Positions 14,792 through 53,478 of a DNA stretch of 64,000 nucleotides are shown piece after piece; position 1 is the stretch's first letter; the number at the start of each line of letters is the position of its first letter. Origin of the DNA: a virus; IMG/VR virus record IMGVR_UViG_3300025012_000046, positions 1 to 64,000 of that record, one strand, 5' to 3'. The notes under the pieces were generated by a model. It was not told the DNA's origin, ran no database searches, and saw nothing but the letters and a program-made list of their open reading frames with translations. A program made the position numbers and the translations under genes.

Positions 14792-15108
14792 TAGGATATA
14801 AACTATTCAGAAAGCTGAAAGATGGGCAGATCGCGCCACTATTTATCAACAAGAAGCTGCGGATACCTGAAGGTGTATGGATGCCAGCTGAGAATCATCC
14901 TACCAAGGGCTATGCTGTGCGTCCCGGTTGGCATGTACTGGCAAGACCACATGCACCACACCTGAGCACTAAAGGTAGAGTGTGGCGGAAAGTTGAGGTT
15001 GAGGACTTTCAGGAATTCGTTAGGCCTGAGTCACAGGGAGGTAAATGGTACTTGGCGAAAAAGATGCGAGTTTTGTGTGGTGAAATTTGCCTTGACAAAA
15101 ATTTTTGA
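14788..15108 (+). CDS. conserved phage hypothetical protein
   Basis: YKLFRK...PLFIN...HPTKGYAVRPGWH motif; ATGA-overlap start. Confidence 0.7.
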   Translation: MIGYKLFRKLKDGQIAPLFINKKLRIPEGVWMPAENHPTKGYAVRPGWHVLARPHAPHLSTKGRVWRKVEVEDFQEFVRPESQGGKWYLAKKMRVLCGEICLDKNF

Positions 15109-15120
15109 AAATGGTATAAT
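15092..15120 (+). promoter_or_regulatory. sigma70-type promoter
   Basis: TTGACA-17-TATAAT, TG extended -10, followed by GCGCCA. Confidence 0.85.
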
Positions 15121-15566
15121 GCGCCATATTTTAATGAAATGAGGTCTAAAAATGTCCAGACAAATTATTAAGCAGCCTAACGGATTGTACGCAGTTTTTA
15201 GTTCTATAGTGGATGGTTTTATTTTAACTAACGCATATCCTTCGGAAATAATAGAGGAATTTGTAGAAGAACATCGTGAAAAAATTACTGAGGATGTAAC
15301 CAACATATGTACCAAGCTTGACAGAAATGAAAAGCCGTATTATCAGTTTACTATGTCATGGGAAGAAGCGCTGGAAGAACATAAAATACATTTTGGTGAT
15401 TTGGAGGAAGAGGTATGATAACTATTTGCGGAAATGATGTAACAATGTCGGTAGAAGATTACGAGGAACTTGCAGAAGACTGTAAGATTCTCAATGCTTT
15501 GAGACGTGCTGGTGTTGATAATTGGGAATTTTGGGACGATGCTATGGAACTTTTGGAGGATTAAAT

Positions 15567-22453: not shown

Positions 22454-22640
22454 CTATGAGTATCCTTAACGATGGACATTGGGTATTTGAGGAGTATACC
22501 CAAAGAGTCACCACTAAGGAATGGAAACAAATACTACTTAGTGGCGGCGATAAAATAATATTTAGAGGGCATCTTGTACAACTTAAAGGTAAAAATTTGG
22601 GTGCTGGGGTTGTAGAAATCTATAAAGCGGCAGAAAAAGA

Positions 22641-22669
22641 TTGACAAAAACAAATGGCTGTGGTATAAT
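22641..22669 (+). promoter_or_regulatory. sigma70-type promoter
   Basis: TTGACA-17-TATAAT, TG extended -10, followed by TCGCCA. Confidence 0.85.
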
Positions 22670-23376
22670 TCGCCACACTTTAATGAGATGAGGTCTTAGA
22701 TGCCAGATATAAGCATGTGCGCCAACGGAGTCAACTGTGAAAGGAAAAGTAAGTGCTACCGCTTCACAGCCTTTCCTTCAGGATTACAGTCTTACGCCAC
22801 GTTTTACGAAGAAGGTAAGTATTGTGAATACTTTATTTTAGATTGGAGCAACCTGCCGTGAGGACTGGTGTTTATGCCTAGAAATCCGTATAAATCAATA
22901 AGCAAGTGTAAACAAAGGATTAACGCAAGAAAAATAAAAAGAAACCGCCGCGCAGCCAGTAAAAGAAAAGAACCATATATTGTTGAAATTACTATGCAAT
23001 ACTTAAAAGCTAAAGCACTTTTAGAAGATAAAACATGGGAGCCTTAAATGATAAGAAAATTTAAAGTAGCAACAACAATCACAACTGAGCATGAAATAGA
23101 AATAGATACAGATAAATTTGATGGTGAATTTATGGCTGATTATGAGAGGTATATTCATAAAGTTTATCAACACGACGATGATCTAATTAAAGGTCATGTG
23201 TTAAATATTGCTGAGTACATGGCTCACAATCCTTACGATAGTTTTATAGAAGGTTACGGTCATATTAGACTAAATGGGTACGCAAATAGTAGTGTTGATG
23301 AGAATGAAATAATGATTTCTGTTAGAGAGACTGACGTATACGTTGATGACCAAGAATTAGATGAGGTAACAGCGAT

Positions 23377-23697
23377 ATGATTTTTATAGAAGCTGTTTGT
23401 GATAGTTGTGGGGAAGAGCTTGAGATAACAAATAGAAGTGACTGTTTCGGTATTAAATTTGGTGTTATGCCTTGTTCTAACTGTGTTGATTATGAGTTTG
23501 ATCGCGGCAGGGAAAGCGCGAATGAAGAGGCGTATAACGACGGGTATAACCAGGGTATGCACGATAACGAAAACTCTGGGTATGATGATGGTTATGATGG
23601 AGGGTATATGGACGGCAAATACGAAGGATATAACGAAGGCTTTGACGCTGGGTATGAGAAAGCTTGTAGAGAATGCGAAAGGGACAATGATCTATGA
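23377..23697 (+). CDS. Zn-finger protein with G-(Y/F)-x-x repeats
   Basis: CDSC/CSNC followed by YNDGYNQG...YDDGYDGGYMDGKYEGYNEGFDAG. Confidence 0.65.
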   Translation: MIFIEAVCDSCGEELEITNRSDCFGIKFGVMPCSNCVDYEFDRGRESANEEAYNDGYNQGMHDNENSGYDDGYDGGYMDGKYEGYNEGFDAGYEKACRECERDNDL

Positions 23698-23841
23698 CAA
23701 TTGTTAAGTGTTCACTAATAGAGTGCAGCAATAATGATTGTGGTGTCTGCACTAGGCATATAATTGAATTGTATGAGCAGTTAAATTATAACGAAGAAAC
23801 TGAGTTTATATGTTATCATTACAAAAGATAGTTTAACATCT

Positions 23842-23936
23842 GGCGGTGTGGCCGGATAATCGGCGCTCTACCGTAATACATATCGGTGTACAGATTAGGG
23901 AGGACAATGTAGGTGAAAGCCCTGCCGCCGCCACCA
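23842..23936 (+). ncRNA. tRNA-like RNA with encoded CCA and a 25-nt insert replacing the anticodon loop
   Basis: 7-bp acceptor stem GGCGGTG/CGCCGCC plus ACCA; D arm GCCG/CGGC; T arm GTAGG-TGAAAGC-CCTGC; GC-rich island in an AT-rich intergenic gap. Confidence 0.75.
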
Positions 23937-23955
23937 AAAATTTTCAGGAGTCGCT

Positions 23956-25311
23956 TTGAATAATCCGCAATGTGAGATGAACATACTGGCCAAGCTTGTG
24001 TCTGATAAAGACGCTGAAGCTTTGTCCAATATTGACCCAATTAAATTTGGTAATGGTGATCTGCAAAAGCTATTCATCATAGTAAGAAACCACTACATAG
24101 ACAAAGATCAATGGATAGGTTTTGACTACCTTAAACAAGTGGTAGTTTCTCTCTGTAAGACCGCAGATAAAGCTGAGTTTATGTCTGGGATGATAGACCA
24201 ACTTAAGACAAGGGATATTGGTGAGGTAAGCTTTAGTGATCTTTTGACTGAGCTTGATAATTTCTATAAGTTCAGGCTGATAACTAGTAAGGCAGATAAG
24301 CTTATCAGCGCTGTGCAGAGCAAAGATATTAATGGCGCTTTGGGTGAAGTTAGGGGGATGTATGAGGATGTTTTTGTAAACACTACACATAAACTTGAGG
24401 ATAGCGATTCAGTTAACCTCATGGGGCAAAAGGTTAAATACGTATTTAGAAAAGTAGGTATCCCAGAGCTTGACGAAAGAGGGCCACTTATCGAAGGTGG
24501 TTTGACAATTTTGGGGGCCGGAAGTGGTAAGGGAAAGAGCAATCTTGCCTTACAATTTGATATTTACCACTATTTAAACTACGAAGGGTCTGTGGCGTAT
24601 TTCTCTTTTGAGTTGAGTAGAGAAGAAATTTATGCGCGAATAATTTCTAACTTAGCAGAAATAGACGTTGGCAATATAATCTCAGATGCACTTAAACCTG
24701 AAGAAGTGCTTAGGAAACGTGAAGCTGAGCTGTACTTTCATTATGATATTACTAGGGAAGAGGCTAATAAATTTACGCTAGCCTCACACTTAGAATCTGA
24801 TGAAAGTTTTAACGAAATAGCTACTAACACGTATACCAGAAGGAAAAATACTTTTTATATTTTTGATGAGAGTTGCAACTTTGATGAGTTAATGATAAAG
24901 ATGCGGCTTTTGCGAGATACTAAAAATGTTAGAAAGTTTACAGTGGATTATCTCACGCTAATCCCTAGAGGTTTTGTTGATAAAAATACTCCAGACTGGA
25001 AAGTGCCAATTTTGTACAGTGAACGTCTAAAACTGTTTGCTAAGGAACAAGGAAAGAAGTGTTATGTAGTGACCCCAGTACAATTTAATGATAAAAACGA
25101 AGAGCTTAAGTTCTCGAAATCATTAGAAAATGCGGTGGATTTGTATATGAATTTCAAACAAGACGAAGACGATAAAACATTAGGTACAGTTACAGTTAAT
25201 TTCGGTAAGTTCAGAACGTACCTAACTGTACCAAATAAACCACTTAAATCTTTTAAATTGTTGACTGAATTTCAGTATAGCAGGTTTAAAAGCTTTAGTT
25301 TTGGGAGTTAA
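23956..25311 (+). CDS. DnaB-like replicative helicase
   Basis: Walker A GAGSGKGKS; FSFELS; VDYLTLI; PVQFN. Confidence 0.85.
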   Translation: MNNPQCEMNILAKLVSDKDAEALSNIDPIKFGNGDLQKLFIIVRNHYIDKDQWIGFDYLKQVVVSLCKTADKAEFMSGMIDQLKTRDIGEVSFSDLLTELDNFYKFRLITSKADKLISAVQSKDINGALGEVRGMYEDVFVNTTHKLEDSDSVNLMGQKVKYVFRKVGIPELDERGPLIEGGLTILGAGSGKGKSNLALQFDIYHYLNYEGSVAYFSFELSREEIYARIISNLAEIDVGNIISDALKPEEVLRKREAELYFHYDITREEANKFTLASHLESDESFNEIATNTYTRRKNTFYIFDESCNFDELMIKMRLLRDTKNVRKFTVDYLTLIPRGFVDKNTPDWKVPILYSERLKLFAKEQGKKCYVVTPVQFNDKNEELKFSKSLENAVDLYMNFKQDEDDKTLGTVTVNFGKFRTYLTVPNKPLKSFKLLTEFQYSRFKSFSFGS

Positions 25312-26390: not shown

Positions 26391-26562
26391 ATTAGCAACT
26401 ATAGTAAAGTATATCGGTTATCTTGTCTTAGGGGTTTTACTTGCTAACACAGGCGTAATTTGGAACAATCCTAACTGGTGGTCAATATTAGTAATTGTGC
26501 TGGTTATAGATACTGCTTCTCATTATGAGACAGCTTAAAATTACAGCCAAATGAAATTTTGC

Positions 26563-26591
26563 TTGACATTTTATAATCTACGTGGTATAAT
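26563..26591 (+). promoter_or_regulatory. sigma70-type promoter
   Basis: TTGACA-17-TATAAT, TG extended -10, followed by GCGCCATCTTT. Confidence 0.85.
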
Positions 26592-26621
26592 GCGCCATCT
26601 TTTAAATGTTATTGAGGTCTT

Positions 26622-29101: not shown

Positions 29102-29635
29102 ATGGGTAGCAACTTACACCATATAGAAGGTGACGTAGCATTTATAAAACTTGTCAGGAAAAAGCATATTATTAGATACGCTAAAGTTGACATTGAAGAC
29201 CTAGACAAAGTAGTAAGTCACCGTTACACTGGGCATCTTAATATGCAAAATACAGTGTTAAATAAGCAGGACGAGTATAATGCTAAATATTATGCTAGAG
29301 CAACTTTAGGGGTAGAGAACGGCAGCAAAATTGGTATATTAATGCACAGATTCGTACTGGGAGCTAATAAAGACTGGGACTGCGCGGTGGTTGACCATAT
29401 AAACGGGGATACACTAGACAACCGCAAGTCTAACCTTAGAATAACTAACCAGTCGATAAATTCATTAAATAGAAGCAGGATAAACTATAACAATAAAGTA
29501 AAAATACCTGGTGTGTATTGGGTTGAGCGTGAAAAGTGCTACTATATTTACTCAAGCGGAACCGTGAGGAAATATTTAGGCAGAGCTAAGACACTTGAAG
29601 AGGCCGCGTTAATTAGGAACGCTTGGGATGCTTGA
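29102..29635 (+). CDS. HNH homing endonuclease
   Basis: MHRFVL...VDHINGDTLDNRKSNLR; AP2-like C-terminus. Confidence 0.9.
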   Translation: MGSNLHHIEGDVAFIKLVRKKHIIRYAKVDIEDLDKVVSHRYTGHLNMQNTVLNKQDEYNAKYYARATLGVENGSKIGILMHRFVLGANKDWDCAVVDHINGDTLDNRKSNLRITNQSINSLNRSRINYNNKVKIPGVYWVEREKCYYIYSSGTVRKYLGRAKTLEEAALIRNAWDA

Positions 29636-33517: not shown

Positions 33518-36145
33518 ATGCCTGTACTTGCCAGAATAGCACCATCAAATAAAATATGTATAATTTTTGATTCAGCGCAGACTAATAACTGGCTTTATGA
33601 GGGTAAGGTTACGTTTGAAGGTTTAGGCCTTACGCTTAAGTATTTCCTTGAGGCTGGGTTTAATATGAACGACATATCAGTGCTCAACCTTGCTGATATG
33701 TACGGAAAACCTAAAGCTTCACAGTTTAAAGAAAAAGCTGATTATGTACATGAAGTTATAACTACTTGCTGCTTTAATGTGTTGGTTCCAGTAGGAGCAG
33801 AAGCTTTTAATAAAGTGGTAGGCTGGAAAGGTATACAGAAATATGTCGGCAAAGCACTTTACAGTGACGTTTATCCCAAACAGAAGGTTGTGCCTATACA
33901 AAACCCAATACAGGTTAAGTACGACCCGGTTGTAGGTGATAATATTGCGTCAACCATGAAGCTGCTTGCTGAGGAGTGCGAATACCCTGAACTGCGCGAT
34001 AAAGTAAAACTTCCTACTAAGTACACAGTAGTAGATACAATGCAGAAGTTTGAGCAGTGGTATGACTATTACTTATCAAAAGTAAAAGCTTTTGCATATG
34101 ACACAGAGACAAAAGGATTCGCTTTCAACCACCCTAGCGGTAGGTTGCTATGCCTCTCTTTCAGTCACAAGCCGGGGTTTGCATACTTAATACCAACAAA
34201 CTTCTATCAAGGTTTCTGGACAGAGGAAGAATATTTCAAGATTAAGTGCTGCCTTAGAAGATTGTTTGGTGATGAGTCTAAGCTTCTTATTGGGCACAAC
34301 ATCAAGTATGATAACAAGTGGATTTATCACCATTTAGGGATACCTGTACGAAGGAAAAACTTCTTCGATACAATGGTTGCAGCTTTCCTATGCAATGAAA
34401 ATACGCCTAACGACCTTAAATATTGTGCTATGTGCTTTACTGACATGGGAGATTATGAGTTTGAGTTACAGAGGTGGATTGATAGGTACTGCGCTGAAAA
34501 TAAGATAAAGAAAACAGAGTTCACCTATGACCTGATACCGTTTAAAATACTTACAGATTACGCTCTTTGTGACGCTGACGCTACCTTTAGGCTCTATCTA
34601 CACTTTAAAGAAGAGCTTGTAAAGGAAGAGCAAGTTAAAGTATTTGAGATGGTAAATGATAAATTTGTTTACCTTCTTACAAAAATGGAGCTTAATGGTT
34701 GGCCTATAGACGTAGAGTATGGTGAACAGCTTAGAAAACAATTGGAAGAAGAAATAGCAAAAGTAGATGCTAAACTCAGAGAGTTTACTGAAGTAAAGGC
34801 TGCTACTAAGATAGCTTATCAGAGAGCATTAGATAAAGAAAATGCTGTACGTAAAAAGCCTATAGATATCCTTCCAAAGTCAAAGTGGAAGGGGTTTTTA
34901 TTTAGTTCTAATCACCATAAACGAATTTTATTTTATGAAGTTATGGGACTGCCTGTTGTAAAATATACTAAGGCAAAGAATGAAGAGGGTAAAAAGGTAA
35001 CACCTGCTGTTGATCGTGAGTGTTTGGAAGATTGGTTTTATAATTTTCCAAAAAAGGGTGAATTTCTTGAAACACTACAGTACCATGGAGAGCTTAACAA
35101 AATAAAATCTACTTATGTAGATAGTACTCTTAAAAAGGTAGTTAATGGTAGAGTTCATCCTACGTATAATCCCATTGGATGCAAGACCGGACGTTTAAGC
35201 TGCAAAGACCCCAATTACCAGCAGCTTCCAGCTAGACCCAGAGAACCACATTTTATTGAGAAGTTGCCTTTAGTTAAATTAGTAAAGAAGATGGTAAAAG
35301 CTCCAGATGGCAGGTTTTTAATTGGGGCCGATCTTTCTGCTATAGAGATGCGGTATGCGTGTATAGTTTCTGGAGATAAAAGACTAGAAGATATATTTAA
35401 TAGTTTAATGGATGTTCACGGTTGTATTACAAAAGAATTATTCCCATACATAAAGTGTGAGCCTAACGATGTAAAGAAACTGTTTAAGTTTGAAAGGGAC
35501 AGCATTGGGAAGCGCGTACAATTTTTAAGTTTATTTGGCGGAGGTGCTGAAACGCTTGCTAAAGGCGTTAATATCGAAAACAGAAACCGTGTAGACGAGA
35601 ATGGTAACAAGCTTAATGACGACCTGACCGAAGAACAAGCGCAGCAGATTCTTGATAACTACTTTGAAAAGTATAGTGGTGTAAAACAATGTATAGATGA
35701 TACCACAAAGTTTATTGAAAAGAACGGTTACTCTGTATCTATCTTTGGTAGAAAAAGGAGAATACCAGAAGTAAATGCTGAAGATAAAGGAGCTAAAGCT
35801 AGAGCAATTAGACAGGGAGTGAATAGCATTTTTCAGTCTCCAGCAAGTGACAGCTTACTTTTAGCTTTGTATGATTTTCAAATATGGATAGAGGAAAATG
35901 AATATGACTTTAAACAGCTAGGTCCGTGCCACGATGCGGGTTATGGCGAAACCACTGAAGAACTTAAAGTAGAGGCTAGTGAACTACTTTTAAAGTATTT
36001 ACAAACGCCACCAATACCAGTTAATATTCCTATAATAGCAGAATGTGAAGGTGGAATTTCTTGGGCCGATTTTAGTGATGATTTTGGTAATGAACTTTTA
36101 AAGGAAGAAGAGGACGAAGACGAATTAGATGATGAAGCAGCATAA
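33518..36145 (+). CDS. family A DNA polymerase with an N-terminal UDG-like domain and 3'-5' exonuclease
   Basis: Exo I DTET, Exo II HNIKYD, Exo III YALCD; TGRLSCKDPNYQQLP; motif A ADLSAIEMR, B KRVQFLSLFG, C CHDA. Confidence 0.95.
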   Translation: MPVLARIAPSNKICIIFDSAQTNNWLYEGKVTFEGLGLTLKYFLEAGFNMNDISVLNLADMYGKPKASQFKEKADYVHEVITTCCFNVLVPVGAEAFNKVVGWKGIQKYVGKALYSDVYPKQKVVPIQNPIQVKYDPVVGDNIASTMKLLAEECEYPELRDKVKLPTKYTVVDTMQKFEQWYDYYLSKVKAFAYDTETKGFAFNHPSGRLLCLSFSHKPGFAYLIPTNFYQGFWTEEEYFKIKCCLRRLFGDESKLLIGHNIKYDNKWIYHHLGIPVRRKNFFDTMVAAFLCNENTPNDLKYCAMCFTDMGDYEFELQRWIDRYCAENKIKKTEFTYDLIPFKILTDYALCDADATFRLYLHFKEELVKEEQVKVFEMVNDKFVYLLTKMELNGWPIDVEYGEQLRKQLEEEIAKVDAKLREFTEVKAATKIAYQRALDKENAVRKKPIDILPKSKWKGFLFSSNHHKRILFYEVMGLPVVKYTKAKNEEGKKVTPAVDRECLEDWFYNFPKKGEFLETLQYHGELNKIKSTYVDSTLKKVVNGRVHPTYNPIGCKTGRLSCKDPNYQQLPARPREPHFIEKLPLVKLVKKMVKAPDGRFLIGADLSAIEMRYACIVSGDKRLEDIFNSLMDVHGCITKELFPYIKCEPNDVKKLFKFERDSIGKRVQFLSLFGGGAETLAKGVNIENRNRVDENGNKLNDDLTEEQAQQILDNYFEKYSGVKQCIDDTTKFIEKNGYSVSIFGRKRRIPEVNAEDKGAKARAIRQGVNSIFQSPASDSLLLALYDFQIWIEENEYDFKQLGPCHDAGYGETTEELKVEASELLLKYLQTPPIPVNIPIIAECEGGISWADFSDDFGNELLKEEEDEDELDDEAA

Positions 36146-36677
36146 AGATGGTTATTTTAATTGGATAGAGTATGAAGACCACGCCGAATTTGTAGTGTAC
36201 AAAAACGAAGTTAAGTATTTTATTATAGTGGACCTTGAAGATGTGCCTAAAATAATTAACAACATAAACTCTTGGTATTTGTGTAAGCAAATAGGAGAGG
36301 TTCCTAGAGTAGCAGTTAGATATGGAGAGCACGGCAAGGTTAAGCGGGATTATCTGCATAGGTTTTTAATTAAGGCACCTAAAGAGCTTATAGTGGACCA
36401 CAAAGATAATAACCCACTAAATAATCGTAAACTTAATTTGAGATTAGCTGACATGTCTAATAATATGTTAAACAGGCGCGGGGCTGCTAGACAAAGCAAA
36501 ACCCAGGTGAGAGGTGTATATTATGATAAGTGTAGAGATAAGTATGTGGCTGCTTTACAGGTAAATGGTGAGGTAGTATTTAGGAAACGTTTTGACACAA
36601 TATCTGAAGCAATAGAAGCAGTTAAACAAGCTAGAGCTAAGTACGCGCCTTTCAGTAAAGAAGCTAGTGAGGACTAG
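36129..36677 (+). CDS. HNH-AP2 homing endonuclease
   Basis: LHRFLI...VDHKDNNPLNNRKLNLR; RGVYYDK...KYVA...FDTISEA. Confidence 0.9.
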   Translation: MMKQHKDGYFNWIEYEDHAEFVVYKNEVKYFIIVDLEDVPKIINNINSWYLCKQIGEVPRVAVRYGEHGKVKRDYLHRFLIKAPKELIVDHKDNNPLNNRKLNLRLADMSNNMLNRRGAARQSKTQVRGVYYDKCRDKYVAALQVNGEVVFRKRFDTISEAIEAVKQARAKYAPFSKEASED

Positions 36678-38975: not shown

Positions 38976-39034
38976 CACACTAATTGAACACTAACATTAG
39001 TTATGTTAATTTGCAAACTCATGTTAAAATTTGC

Positions 39035-39063
39035 TTGACAAAAGGTATGGCTTGTGTTATAAT
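39035..39063 (+). promoter_or_regulatory. sigma70-type promoter
   Basis: TTGACA-17-TATAAT, TG extended -10, followed by GCGGCATCTTT. Confidence 0.85.
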
Positions 39064-39246
39064 GCGGCATCTTTTGAAATTGAAATGTTAATTAGAGGTC
39101 TAACAAATGATCGACTTTGAAAAAGAAGCAAGGGATTTCTGTAACAAAGGCCCAATTAGTGTTGAAACACTAGCTGAGTTGTTAGCTGCTACTTGGGACA
39201 AAGGGTATAACTACGCTGTACGATACTTTTACGAGAGGGACTAAAT

Positions 39247-39729: not shown

Positions 39730-40386
39730 ATGGAAATAAACCTGCTACACGTAACACCTATGTCTGTGTTGGTAAAAGCAATACGCACCTGTTATGACTC
39801 ACATGAAAGAAGTGATAGCGTTTGGTATACTGCTGACACTTTTGATCTTGGTCCTAAAGACAAAGCACTAATACAGCAAATTATAGACTCAGGTCACTTG
39901 TCAACCCTTGAGCACGTCAACTTCACCTTCTATCTAAAGGGATTCTCAAGGGCAGTTCTTCAGCAACTTAGCAGGCATCGGATAACTACCCCTAGTGTTA
40001 AGTCAAGCCGGTACACGCTAAAAGAGCTTAAGAATGAGCCTCCGTTTTTGGATAAGTTTTTAAATCCTCTGACTGAAAGAGCTAGCAAATACTTGGTCTT
40101 CACAGGAGTAGAGGAAGTAGACATTTATTCGGTATGGGCGTTGGAGCACGTTAGACGCTGCGTTTCAAAAGGTATTCAGAATGATAAAGCAAAATACTGT
40201 ATGCCAGATGCTTATAAAACTGACGCTACTTTAACACTGAACGTTAGGTCATTCCGAAACTTGCTTCAACTTAGAACGTCTGAAAAAGCTTTATGGGAAT
40301 TTCAGGATTTGGCTCACGGTATGTTTAGTGTAGTACCTGAAGAATACAAATTTTTGATGGAAGATTGTGTGCATGGAAAACTTTAA
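39730..40386 (+). CDS. thyX: flavin-dependent thymidylate synthase
   Basis: GHLSTLEH, QLSRHR...SVKSSRY, NVRSFRNLLQLR...ALWE. Confidence 0.95.
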   Translation: MEINLLHVTPMSVLVKAIRTCYDSHERSDSVWYTADTFDLGPKDKALIQQIIDSGHLSTLEHVNFTFYLKGFSRAVLQQLSRHRITTPSVKSSRYTLKELKNEPPFLDKFLNPLTERASKYLVFTGVEEVDIYSVWALEHVRRCVSKGIQNDKAKYCMPDAYKTDATLTLNVRSFRNLLQLRTSEKALWEFQDLAHGMFSVVPEEYKFLMEDCVHGKL

Positions 40387-41732: not shown

Positions 41733-41762
41733 ATTTTAAATAACAAGTAAGTTATATTTTGC

Positions 41763-41791
41763 TTGACAAACTATAATCTTTGTGTTATAAT
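41763..41791 (+). promoter_or_regulatory. sigma70-type promoter
   Basis: TTGACA-17-TATAAT, TG extended -10, followed by GCGCCATCTTT. Confidence 0.85.
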
Positions 41792-42092
41792 GCGCCATCT
41801 TTAATTGAATTGAGGTCACAAAAATGAATGAAGAAGTAACAGGTAGACTTGAAAATTGGTATGTAGCTAACGGGGTGGTGTGGGGCAACTTGCACGACGA
41901 TGTTCGTAAGCGGTGGGACGACGGAGAACACATACGCACATCAACGGTACAAGGCTCTACCACAAATCTGAAAGAAGGTGAGGTGGTTAAAACTCGTAAT
42001 TCACTTTATTTGTTGGGCAAGAAAGCAGGACTAAAATCTAAAGAAGTATAATTTAACTGTAATCAAACTTAATCTTAGGAGACAATTTTACT

Positions 42093-49953: not shown

Positions 49954-49974
49954 AGCAATTTAATAAAGTTTATC

Positions 49975-50003
49975 TTGACAAACCATTACGAATGTGTTAT
50001 AAT
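49975..50003 (+). promoter_or_regulatory. sigma70-type promoter
   Basis: TTGACA-17-TATAAT, TG extended -10. Confidence 0.85.
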
Positions 50004-50040
50004 GCTGTTACTTTAATAGATTGATATGTGGAGGTTTTAA

Positions 50041-52216: not shown

Positions 52217-53052
52217 CAAATGGAAAAAGAATATTTCTGTCCCAACTGTAACGAAAACAAAACAGCATCTGTATTTGAGGGTGTAGATGGTACGCTGATT
52301 ATTTGCAACACATGTGGTTCATTCGTAGAGTGTACCGCGTATCAAGACTTTGACGAGTTCTCTGTGCGAGAGATAAAGCTTCTCATAGAGCAACTTCAAA
52401 CAAAAGTCACAAACATGCTTGACGAAGCTAACCAACTTCTTTTCAGAAAAGAAGCACTAAAAGATTTGATTAAGGATTATATTTAATGGAACATGAGTGT
52501 GAAGATAATGTTTGTTGTGAGTGTGAACGTGTAGAAGAGTTGGTAGAGGCATTGGGCGATTTCTTTGAAGATACTGGATTTTCAGCGTATGACGTGCTTT
52601 TTGGTATATCTATTATCGCACATGATTTGAAAATTGAGGCTGAAGAAGAGAGTGACTTTAACTTGGCTGAGTCACTTGCGGCTGACATAGACGCCTTTGA
52701 GACGTGCTTGGATAAACTTGAGCAGAACGCTGAGTTCTTTGGAAACTGTAAGGGTTCGGGAGTGACTAACTAATGGGTGTTGATTTTTATACTTGTGAGT
52801 ACTGCGGAGAGGCATTTCCTGACTGCGGAGAGTACGTACACTGTGACGAGTGCTGGAGGCATTGGTGTTGTGAGGAGTGTGCAGAAAAAGACGGCGCTGT
52901 TTATAAAGAAGATGGTGATGTAGAAAGCTGCAAGTACTGTCGCTGCGAAGACGTTGATGACTATGTGTTGGTAGCGTTTATGCTACGTTACTTCAACACA
53001 ACCAGAGAAGATATGGTTAAACAATATTTTAATACTAAGGGGAATAAATAAA

Positions 53053-53306: not shown

Positions 53307-53478
53307 AAGCCCTCACGCCTCTTCTCAGAAAGCGCAACACGAGGATCAGGTGAATTCTAGGTAGTAGCCTGACGGTGTTTGTAGGAGTTCACTAGGCTAA
53401 TAAAACCTGCGGTGCTAAGGAGTTTGGCGGTTTGTACTTAGCATCAGTTATAACAACCGCTATAATTTAGAGGCTTTT
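53307..53478 (+). ncRNA. structured intergenic RNA with an H-type pseudoknot (cis-regulatory element or sRNA)
   Basis: stems 53349-53357/53385-53393 and 53411-53419/53437-53445; loop GGCGGTT pairs with AACCGCT at 53455-53461. Confidence 0.6.

Follow-up and report, generated by a model that had tools for sequence, protein, structure and literature searches.

RNAs that look like tRNAs and are cut from longer transcripts have already been described in eukaryotes, in organelles and for a few phage RNAs. In plant mitochondria, t-elements serve as tRNA-like processing modules within longer transcripts. Phage T5 and its related phage groups carry many tRNA genes, and the T-even phages are said to produce stable 'tRNA-like' RNAs with tRNA-like ends, no decoding and an unknown function, as Moen, Seidman and McClain reportedly found in 1978. 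The YrlA RNAs, which also mimic tRNA, end in a long helix and have an acceptor-like stem that is closed by a loop. These Y RNA-like mimics occur in bacteria and phages with a Ro/TROVE partner (PMC7824862), and the mascRNA of MALAT1 is a tRNA-like processing module inside a longer transcript (PMC9777231). RNase P substrates other than tRNA include the phage M3 RNA, the C4 antisense RNA precursor of phages P1/P7 and polycistronic mRNAs, and both the base U at position -1 and the pairing of RCCA with RNase P RNA are among the determinants of RNase P substrates (PMC11143913).

Here, we analysed a 64,000-nt stretch of DNA, hereafter the window, which comprises positions 1-64,000 of a 99.5-kb IMG/VR virus record with an estimated completeness of 88%. 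Within it, a 95-nt element on the + strand (23842-23936; 57% GC, 3' end ACCA) constitutes a variant of the tRNA-like structure that is statistically solid, lacks decoding capacity and rests on one sequence. To our knowledge, a full four-arm tRNA body that lacks an anticodon loop and stands by itself in a replication operon, in a phage without detectable tRNA genes, is an undescribed class.

The element resembles each of the described systems in part. Like mascRNA and the t-elements, it has a tRNA-shaped fold without a working anticodon loop, predicted to sit inside a longer RNA, and if it is cleaved it would also share with them the freeing of a small RNA by RNase P and 3' processing, which sets the ends of the flanking message. 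The described modules are eukaryotic or organellar, whereas the element has an encoded CCA and lies in a bacteriophage operon, and its cleavage is only predicted. With the M3, C4 and intercistronic mRNA sites recognized by RNase P (PMC11143913), it has in common an acceptor-like helix plus RCCA in a phage or operon RNA. In place of a simple hairpin, it forms a full four-arm junction; it shows no similarity to any phage record and has no antisense target in the phage genome, in which only chance-level 9-12-mers were found. The tRNA-like domain of tmRNA likewise combines an acceptor stem and a T arm with CCA, while its D region is reduced and an anticodon arm is absent. We rejected tmRNA as an identity for the element, which carries C3:G70 rather than G3:U70, as the preliminary description had correctly noted, and has neither a tag reading frame nor pseudoknots; an ARAGORN tmRNA search and Rfam were also negative. 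A YrlA-type mimic was rejected as well. Both RNAs place a tRNA-like body on a long helix in the position of the anticodon stem, whereas the ends of the element lie at the acceptor stem with ACCA, the record contains no TROVE gene (PF05731) and Rfam gives no match. The T-even stable RNAs reportedly lie in a tRNA gene cluster, unlike the element, which has no detectable sequence similarity to them.

Canonical phage tRNAs, such as those of T4, T5 and their relatives, have the same 7/4/5/5 spacing, U8, G53:C61, U54, A58 and a discriminator followed by CCA, and they too are GC-rich, embedded in operons and on the sense strand. Unlike them, the element has no 7-nt anticodon loop, U33, G18 G19 or U55 C56, is passed over by ARAGORN and by the Rfam tRNA family RF00005, and stands singly in a record without detectable tRNA genes.

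Parts and genomic setting of the element

The 5' acceptor strand GGCGGTG (23842-23848, +) is preceded by T at position -1 (23841, +) and pairs with 23926-23932 at probabilities of 0.94-1.0; the stem consists of six G-C pairs and one G.U pair, with C3:G70 at position 3:70. T23849 (+) corresponds to U8. The D arm (23851-23864, +) joins GCCG (23851-23854) to CGGC (23861-23864) at pair probabilities of 0.98-1.0 around the 6-nt loop GATAAT, and is followed by G26 (23865, +). The T arm (23909-23925, +) joins GTAGG (23909-23913) to CCTGC (23921-23925) at 0.84-0.97 around the 7-nt loop TGAAAGC. The 3' terminal part (23926-23936, +) comprises the acceptor strand CGCCGCC (23926-23932), A73 (23933) and the encoded CCA (23934-23936). 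The anticodon arm is replaced by a weak, AU-rich arm of about 40 nt (23866-23905, +), which has no 7-nt loop and no YU for U33. Direct reading confirmed all coordinates and bases of the preliminary description.

Among the marks of tRNA, the element keeps U8, G26, G53:C61, U54, A58, A73 and CCA, and has lost G18 G19, U55 C56, U33 and any 7-nt anticodon loop. Both partners of the elbow contact are gone together, as seen in the D loop GATAAT and the T loop TGAAAGC. No register of the element provides a 7-nt anticodon loop with U33, and the insert contains neither CT nor TT.

The phage has a GC content of 40%, with its early and replication genes on the + strand. The products of these genes include a ResIII/DEAD helicase, a DnaB-like helicase, a DnaC-like loader, a primase, an RNA ligase, a family A DNA polymerase, a DNA ligase, SbcCD, ThyX and ribonucleotide reductase. 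Downstream of the element lies the gene for the DnaB-like replicative helicase (23956-25311, +; Pfam DnaB_C, E = 2.6e-15), whose TTG start, 19 nt past the end of the element, and N-terminus are conserved in four homologues. The spacer in between (23937-23955, +) is made up of an A5T4 run followed by AGGAG, the Shine-Dalgarno sequence of the helicase gene. On the upstream side, the last gene is a 45-aa Cys-rich ORF (23694-23831, +), coupled to the preceding ORF through an ATGA overlap. The intervening gap of 124 nt is the only one longer than 7 nt in the operon, the other junctions being overlaps or at most 7 nt. A 37-aa ORF (23846-23959) with a GTG start and no Shine-Dalgarno sequence runs through most of the gap, and its TGA stop overlaps the helicase TTG (TTGA).

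Seven near-identical promoters (TTGACA, 17 nt, TG-n-TATAAT, then GCGCCA) split the early and replication region of the + strand into operons; in the window, they are located at 15091-15131, 22640-22680, 26562-26602, 39034-39074, 39802-39842, 41762-41802 and 49974-50014. The nearest strong promoter upstream of the element is a consensus TTGACA-17-TATAAT with the TG extension (22641-22669, +), and the next is found at 26563. We found no terminator-like site on the + strand between the promoter at 22641 and the element, and no strong promoter of the element's own. A promoter-like match of 10/12, TTAACA-16-GATAAT (23833-23860), overlaps the D arm. The features conserved among the phage's own promoters are missing from it, and matches of this quality occur at chance level (10 found versus 12.3 expected). 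Because the element lies between the promoters at 22641 and 26563, with no terminator found ahead of it, tight gene junctions and a local promoter of chance quality, it is most likely transcribed in the same message as the helicase.

Fold, statistics and tRNA identity

The minimum free energy (MFE) structure of the element is a cloverleaf, in which the acceptor, D and T helices reach pair probabilities of roughly 0.9 and above (0.84-0.97 in the T arm), whether the element is folded alone or with up to 150 nt of flanking sequence. The preliminary description had proposed a tRNA mimic with an anticodon stem of CTCTA (23866-23870) and TAGGG (23896-23900) that encloses 25 nt; in this register an 8-nt variable stretch follows. 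The acceptor, D and T arms, the CCA and the spacing of that proposal hold, but its anticodon stem has a pair probability of only 0.03, and the ensemble favours instead an irregular rod of 13 bp in a shifted register (element positions 26-63), with the loop AUCG and a canonical 4-nt variable loop. This predicted fourth arm is interrupted only by 1-nt bulges and one 4-nt internal loop; folded alone it reaches -7.4 kcal/mol (z -0.6 versus shuffles) and is thus not extra stable. The 11-mer TAATACATATC, which comes from the apical part of the weak arm, recurs at 92194-92204 (-) and 92373-92383 (+) of the same record, beyond the window, as an inverted pair 170 nt apart in a late gene, and chance may account for these copies (E about 0.6 each).

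All designated positions can pair, 21 of 21 in the register of the preliminary description and 29 of 29 in the MFE register, with 15 G-C pairs. We compared this arrangement with chance by means of a cloverleaf scanner, whose 5' half comprises a 7-bp acceptor stem, 2 nt, a 4-bp D stem, 1 nt and a 5-bp stem with an insert of free length, and whose 3' half comprises a variable region of 4-21 nt, a 5-bp T stem around a 7-nt loop and, without a spacer, the 3' acceptor strand. On both strands of the 99.5-kb record, one site was recovered, which is the element. Across 250 genome shuffles, loose cloverleaves arose at 1.4 per genome, with 4-5 G-C pairs on average and 10 at most, in comparison to 15 of 21 in the element; those bearing NCCA arose at only 0.012 per genome. 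When the 124-nt gap was shuffled with its composition kept, a cloverleaf appeared in 2 of 20,000 trials, none of them with NCCA. Because shuffles of the gap almost never yield a cloverleaf and genome shuffles never one with more than 10 G-C pairs, the tRNA-like shape of the element is not a product of chance.

Further properties set the element apart within its genome. A GC island coincides with it exactly (57% versus 40% for the genome), ranking in the top 0.05% of 95-nt segments in the first 58 kb. The fold is also strand-specific, with -32.2 kcal/mol on the + strand versus -26.1 kcal/mol for the mirrored fold; four G.U pairs turn into A.C mismatches on the opposite strand, and the complement does not form the mirror-image fold. 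The acceptor/T minihelix, consisting of 7 + 5 bp without a spacer, is the sole strong one with NCCA in the record. Taken as a whole, the element has a folding energy that is ordinary for its composition (z -0.74).

Stems are present at the canonical tRNA spacing (7-bp acceptor, 3-4-bp D, 5-bp anticodon and 5-bp T), the anticodon stem being weak. ARAGORN, run on the window and on the whole record with or without introns, reported no tRNA in either. Rfam returned no match for the element at the gathering score, nor at E <= 10 on 271 nt, and RF00005 had no match at E <= 1 in the whole record and none in G001, a relative described below. We also passed 820 internal deletions of the element through ARAGORN, and none was accepted at the default or the 95% threshold, a result that runs against the intron-containing tRNA offered as one option in the preliminary description. 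At the 90% threshold, it is enough for a deletion to leave a 7-nt loop, and the accepted products have arbitrary anticodons, so that no splice product is favoured. This threshold is nevertheless stringent, with one other match in 199 kb, and the element passes it after virtual removal of 18 nt; its body is near-tRNA. The record's only other match at 90%, annotated as 'tRNA-Ile gat' (64372-64462, +; 91 nt), is located just past the window inside a large minus-strand ORF and is probably a false positive.

Because the RNA has no anticodon loop and no canonical contacts between D loop and T loop at the elbow, it cannot decode, and the element is probably a tRNA look-alike without decoding. The central claim of the preliminary description, that of a non-decoding tRNA-like element, fits the significant tRNA geometry, the missing anticodon loop and the absent tRNA, tmRNA and Rfam matches.

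Relatives of the phage

Relatives of this phage are few. The helicase has four homologues among 5.8 billion proteins, at 38-45% identity. In metagenome contigs it was found in only two, L002 and L003, and neither single-sequence nor alignment searches recovered it in viral contigs; tblastn of the helicase against cultured phages gave no match. A polymerase alignment searched against viral contigs identified one real relative (L128/G001), and a closer polymerase relative, P0006, is 66% identical and is encoded on a 112-kb ENA contig. The polymerase is only 28% identical to those of T5-like phages. A blastn search of the region and the element against 50,697 phage records produced no match up to E = 10.

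In L002, the helicase is 42% identical and the downstream gene is conserved, and a different upstream gene abuts the helicase start without a gap. The contig also carries, at 196-471 and about 1 kb upstream of the helicase, a homologue of the window ORF at 52773-53051, indicating that the upstream gene order is rearranged. G001 (50% GC, 91% complete) has a polymerase of 45% and a helicase of 37% identity, and there a 319-aa ORF abuts the helicase. It contains no tRNA, no cloverleaf comparable to the element, no RNA ligase homologue and no match to R1, a covariance model that we built from the single sequence of the element. The preliminary description had stated that a normal tRNA at this place in relatives would count against it. 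None was found, as both relatives (helicase 37-42% identical) have no gap before the helicase and carry nothing in this place, and synteny upstream of this gene is broken in both at the module junction where the element lies.

Searches for the element itself in other sequences were similarly negative. A cloverleaf scan of G001, L002 and L003 revealed nothing comparable, and outside the element R1 matched nothing, whether in its own record, G001 or the 1.4 Mb of loci taken from polymerase relatives. In pattern scans, which covered virus and genome collections, the exact 3' half gave no match. The acceptor plus D stem pattern gave at least 124 matches in genome contigs, which among the matches listed were all chance occurrences in GC-rich genomes and none a tRNA, as well as four chance matches in viral contigs; a scan with the D-loop and T-loop pattern gave one chance match. 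No tRNA genes were detected in G001 or in the record of the phage, which is 88% complete, so that the missing 12% could hide some. The element thus appears, from the sequences compared, as an orphan at a module junction, known from one sequence and lacking in the two relatives examined. The window contains a second non-coding gap (53309-53475), whose hairpins reuse GTAGG/CCTGC; it has no R1 match and is not tRNA-like to ARAGORN.

A possible processing module and its alternatives

We tentatively propose that the element is a non-decoding, tRNA-shaped module in a polycistronic replication operon, which host RNase P and 3' processing may excise, trimming the helicase mRNA; this reading seems quite possible to us. 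A tRNA-shaped punctuation module is favoured because the sequence determinants of RNase P and an A/U run after the CCA are present. These determinants are a 12-bp acceptor/T helix, A73-CCA, T at -1 and G1:C72. A processing signal had also been suggested in the preliminary description, and this suggestion is compatible with U at -1, G1:C72, ACCA and the A/U run. In the 3' maturation of E. coli tRNAs, RNase E enters at A/U-rich spacers behind the CCA, and by analogy the A/U run from 23937 onward may act as an RNase E-type site.

According to this proposal, the operon message would extend from the promoter at 22641 through the small ORFs and the element into the helicase gene. The solid parts of the element, namely the coaxial acceptor/T minihelix, the D arm and the 3' ACCA, would present the features that host tRNA-maturation enzymes read. 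RNase P would cut between T23841 and G23842, an endonuclease would cut within the A/U run that follows the CCA, and exonucleases would then shorten the 3' end to the CCA. A stable RNA of about 95 nt would be released, and the message of the upstream small genes would be split from that of the helicase, which would gain a new start about 10-19 nt before its Shine-Dalgarno sequence. That the element is transcribed, that RNase P and 3' processing act on it, that the helicase mRNA is thereby affected and that the freed RNA has a role of any kind are inferences from sequence features. Counting against cleavage by RNase P, the elbow that aids binding of this enzyme (G18 G19 / U55 C56) is absent from the element; a folding energy no better than that of shuffles and the two relatives without the element also count against a processing module. 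If processed as predicted, the element would represent tRNA-style punctuation governing a phage helicase message and a simple RNase P substrate.

The same features may be read in other ways. The element could be a decayed tRNA pseudogene that took up an 18-nt insertion in its anticodon loop, lost its loop signatures and has no present function, an origin that would suit the non-canonical D and T loops, the disrupted anticodon loop, the absence of any detector match and the lack of a counterpart in both relatives. Its distant T5-like polymerase relatives, moreover, belong to tRNA-rich phage groups. This reading is weakened because the stem pairs are all intact while the loop signatures are gone, in a lineage without detectable tRNA genes; free decay of the loops and the anticodon is thus not matched in the stems, and neither the record nor G001 provides a source tRNA gene. 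A dead spacer of 124 nt would also be odd where the other operon junctions do not exceed 7 nt, and we consider a pseudogene rather unlikely. A signal for the helicase that acts in cis or at the DNA level, to which the likeness to tRNA would be incidental, could take the form of a translational operator, an mRNA stabiliser, a weak internal promoter (23833-23860) or a single-stranded DNA priming or origin structure. The position 19 nt before the helicase start, at the junction where synteny breaks in both relatives, and the 10/12 promoter-like match over the D arm point in this direction. However, such matches occur at chance frequency and this one lacks the features of the phage's own promoter family, the AT-rich repeats expected of an origin are not present, and the full tRNA geometry with ACCA would be left unexplained, all of which makes a signal of this kind doubtful. 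That the element has no function at all, being either a GC-rich patch folded by chance or a piece of the 37-aa ORF at 23846-23959, appears more doubtful still. Shuffled genomes do yield about 1.4 loose cloverleaves each, the folding energy is ordinary, and the open frame meets the helicase start in a TTGA overlap. Yet chance cloverleaves never come near 15 G-C pairs and almost never carry NCCA, the GTG of the ORF has no Shine-Dalgarno sequence, and 37 open codons are unremarkable in GC-rich sequence.

The remaining alternatives both involve the RNA ligase of the phage (30623-31525; PF09414, phrog_548), which is encoded in a record without detectable tRNA genes. A phage or host endonuclease might remove about 18 nt from an intron-containing tRNA and the phage ligase reseal it into a decoding tRNA, and the insert of 18-25 nt does resemble the introns of archaeal and eukaryotic tRNAs in length. 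Against this, the deletions described above restored no tRNA at the default or 95% threshold of ARAGORN, the insert has no CT or TT to supply Y32-U33, and the D and T loops would be non-canonical whatever the splicing. We therefore regard such a tRNA as highly improbable. Two specific intron types were rejected: the predicted arm contains no 3-4-3 bulge-helix-bulge, and the insert of 18-25 nt is far too short to hold a group I core.

Alternatively, the tRNA-shaped RNA, once released, may itself be what matters and sequester, as a decoy or sponge, some host factor with affinity for tRNA bodies; a decoy role had also been raised in the preliminary description. Candidates are an anticodon nuclease, a different defence aimed at tRNA, and an enzyme that modifies or senses tRNA. 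The ill-formed arm would present no anticodon loop to be cleaved. The acceptor, D and T body is intact with its CCA while the anticodon loop is missing, and the ligase belongs to a gene class tied to the repair of cleaved tRNAs in phages (PMC7824862). G001 lacks both the ligase and the element, a weak hint from a single data point, and the first 7 nt of the insert, CCGUAAU, bear a statistically meaningless resemblance to a GUA (Tyr) loop with C33. By contrast, the elbow used by many tRNA-binding proteins is missing, the element has no promoter of its own for a high copy number, the record encodes no Ro/TROVE (PF05731), CCA-adding enzyme or RtcB, and nothing separates a decoy from a pure processing signal. 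We consider a decoy unlikely, and the more specific version quite unlikely. In that version the elbow-less tRNA body, with its encoded CCA and a floppy arm in the anticodon position, would act in trans: resistant to cleavage, it would distract or inhibit a host immune nuclease directed at tRNA, or another host factor that binds tRNA, possibly together with the phage RNA ligase. Should the freed RNA act in trans, it would be relevant to the arms race over defences that target tRNA, and a decoy of this kind, if true, would amount to a so far undescribed type of RNA-based anti-defence device.

Two further features of the window were observed. HNH_3 homing-endonuclease-like ORFs (29102-29635 and 36129-36677) flank the primase/RNA-ligase and polymerase genes. 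Between 58000 and 64000, the GC content climbs from 40% to 49%, with genes switching strand at the start of the late tail-fibre genes.
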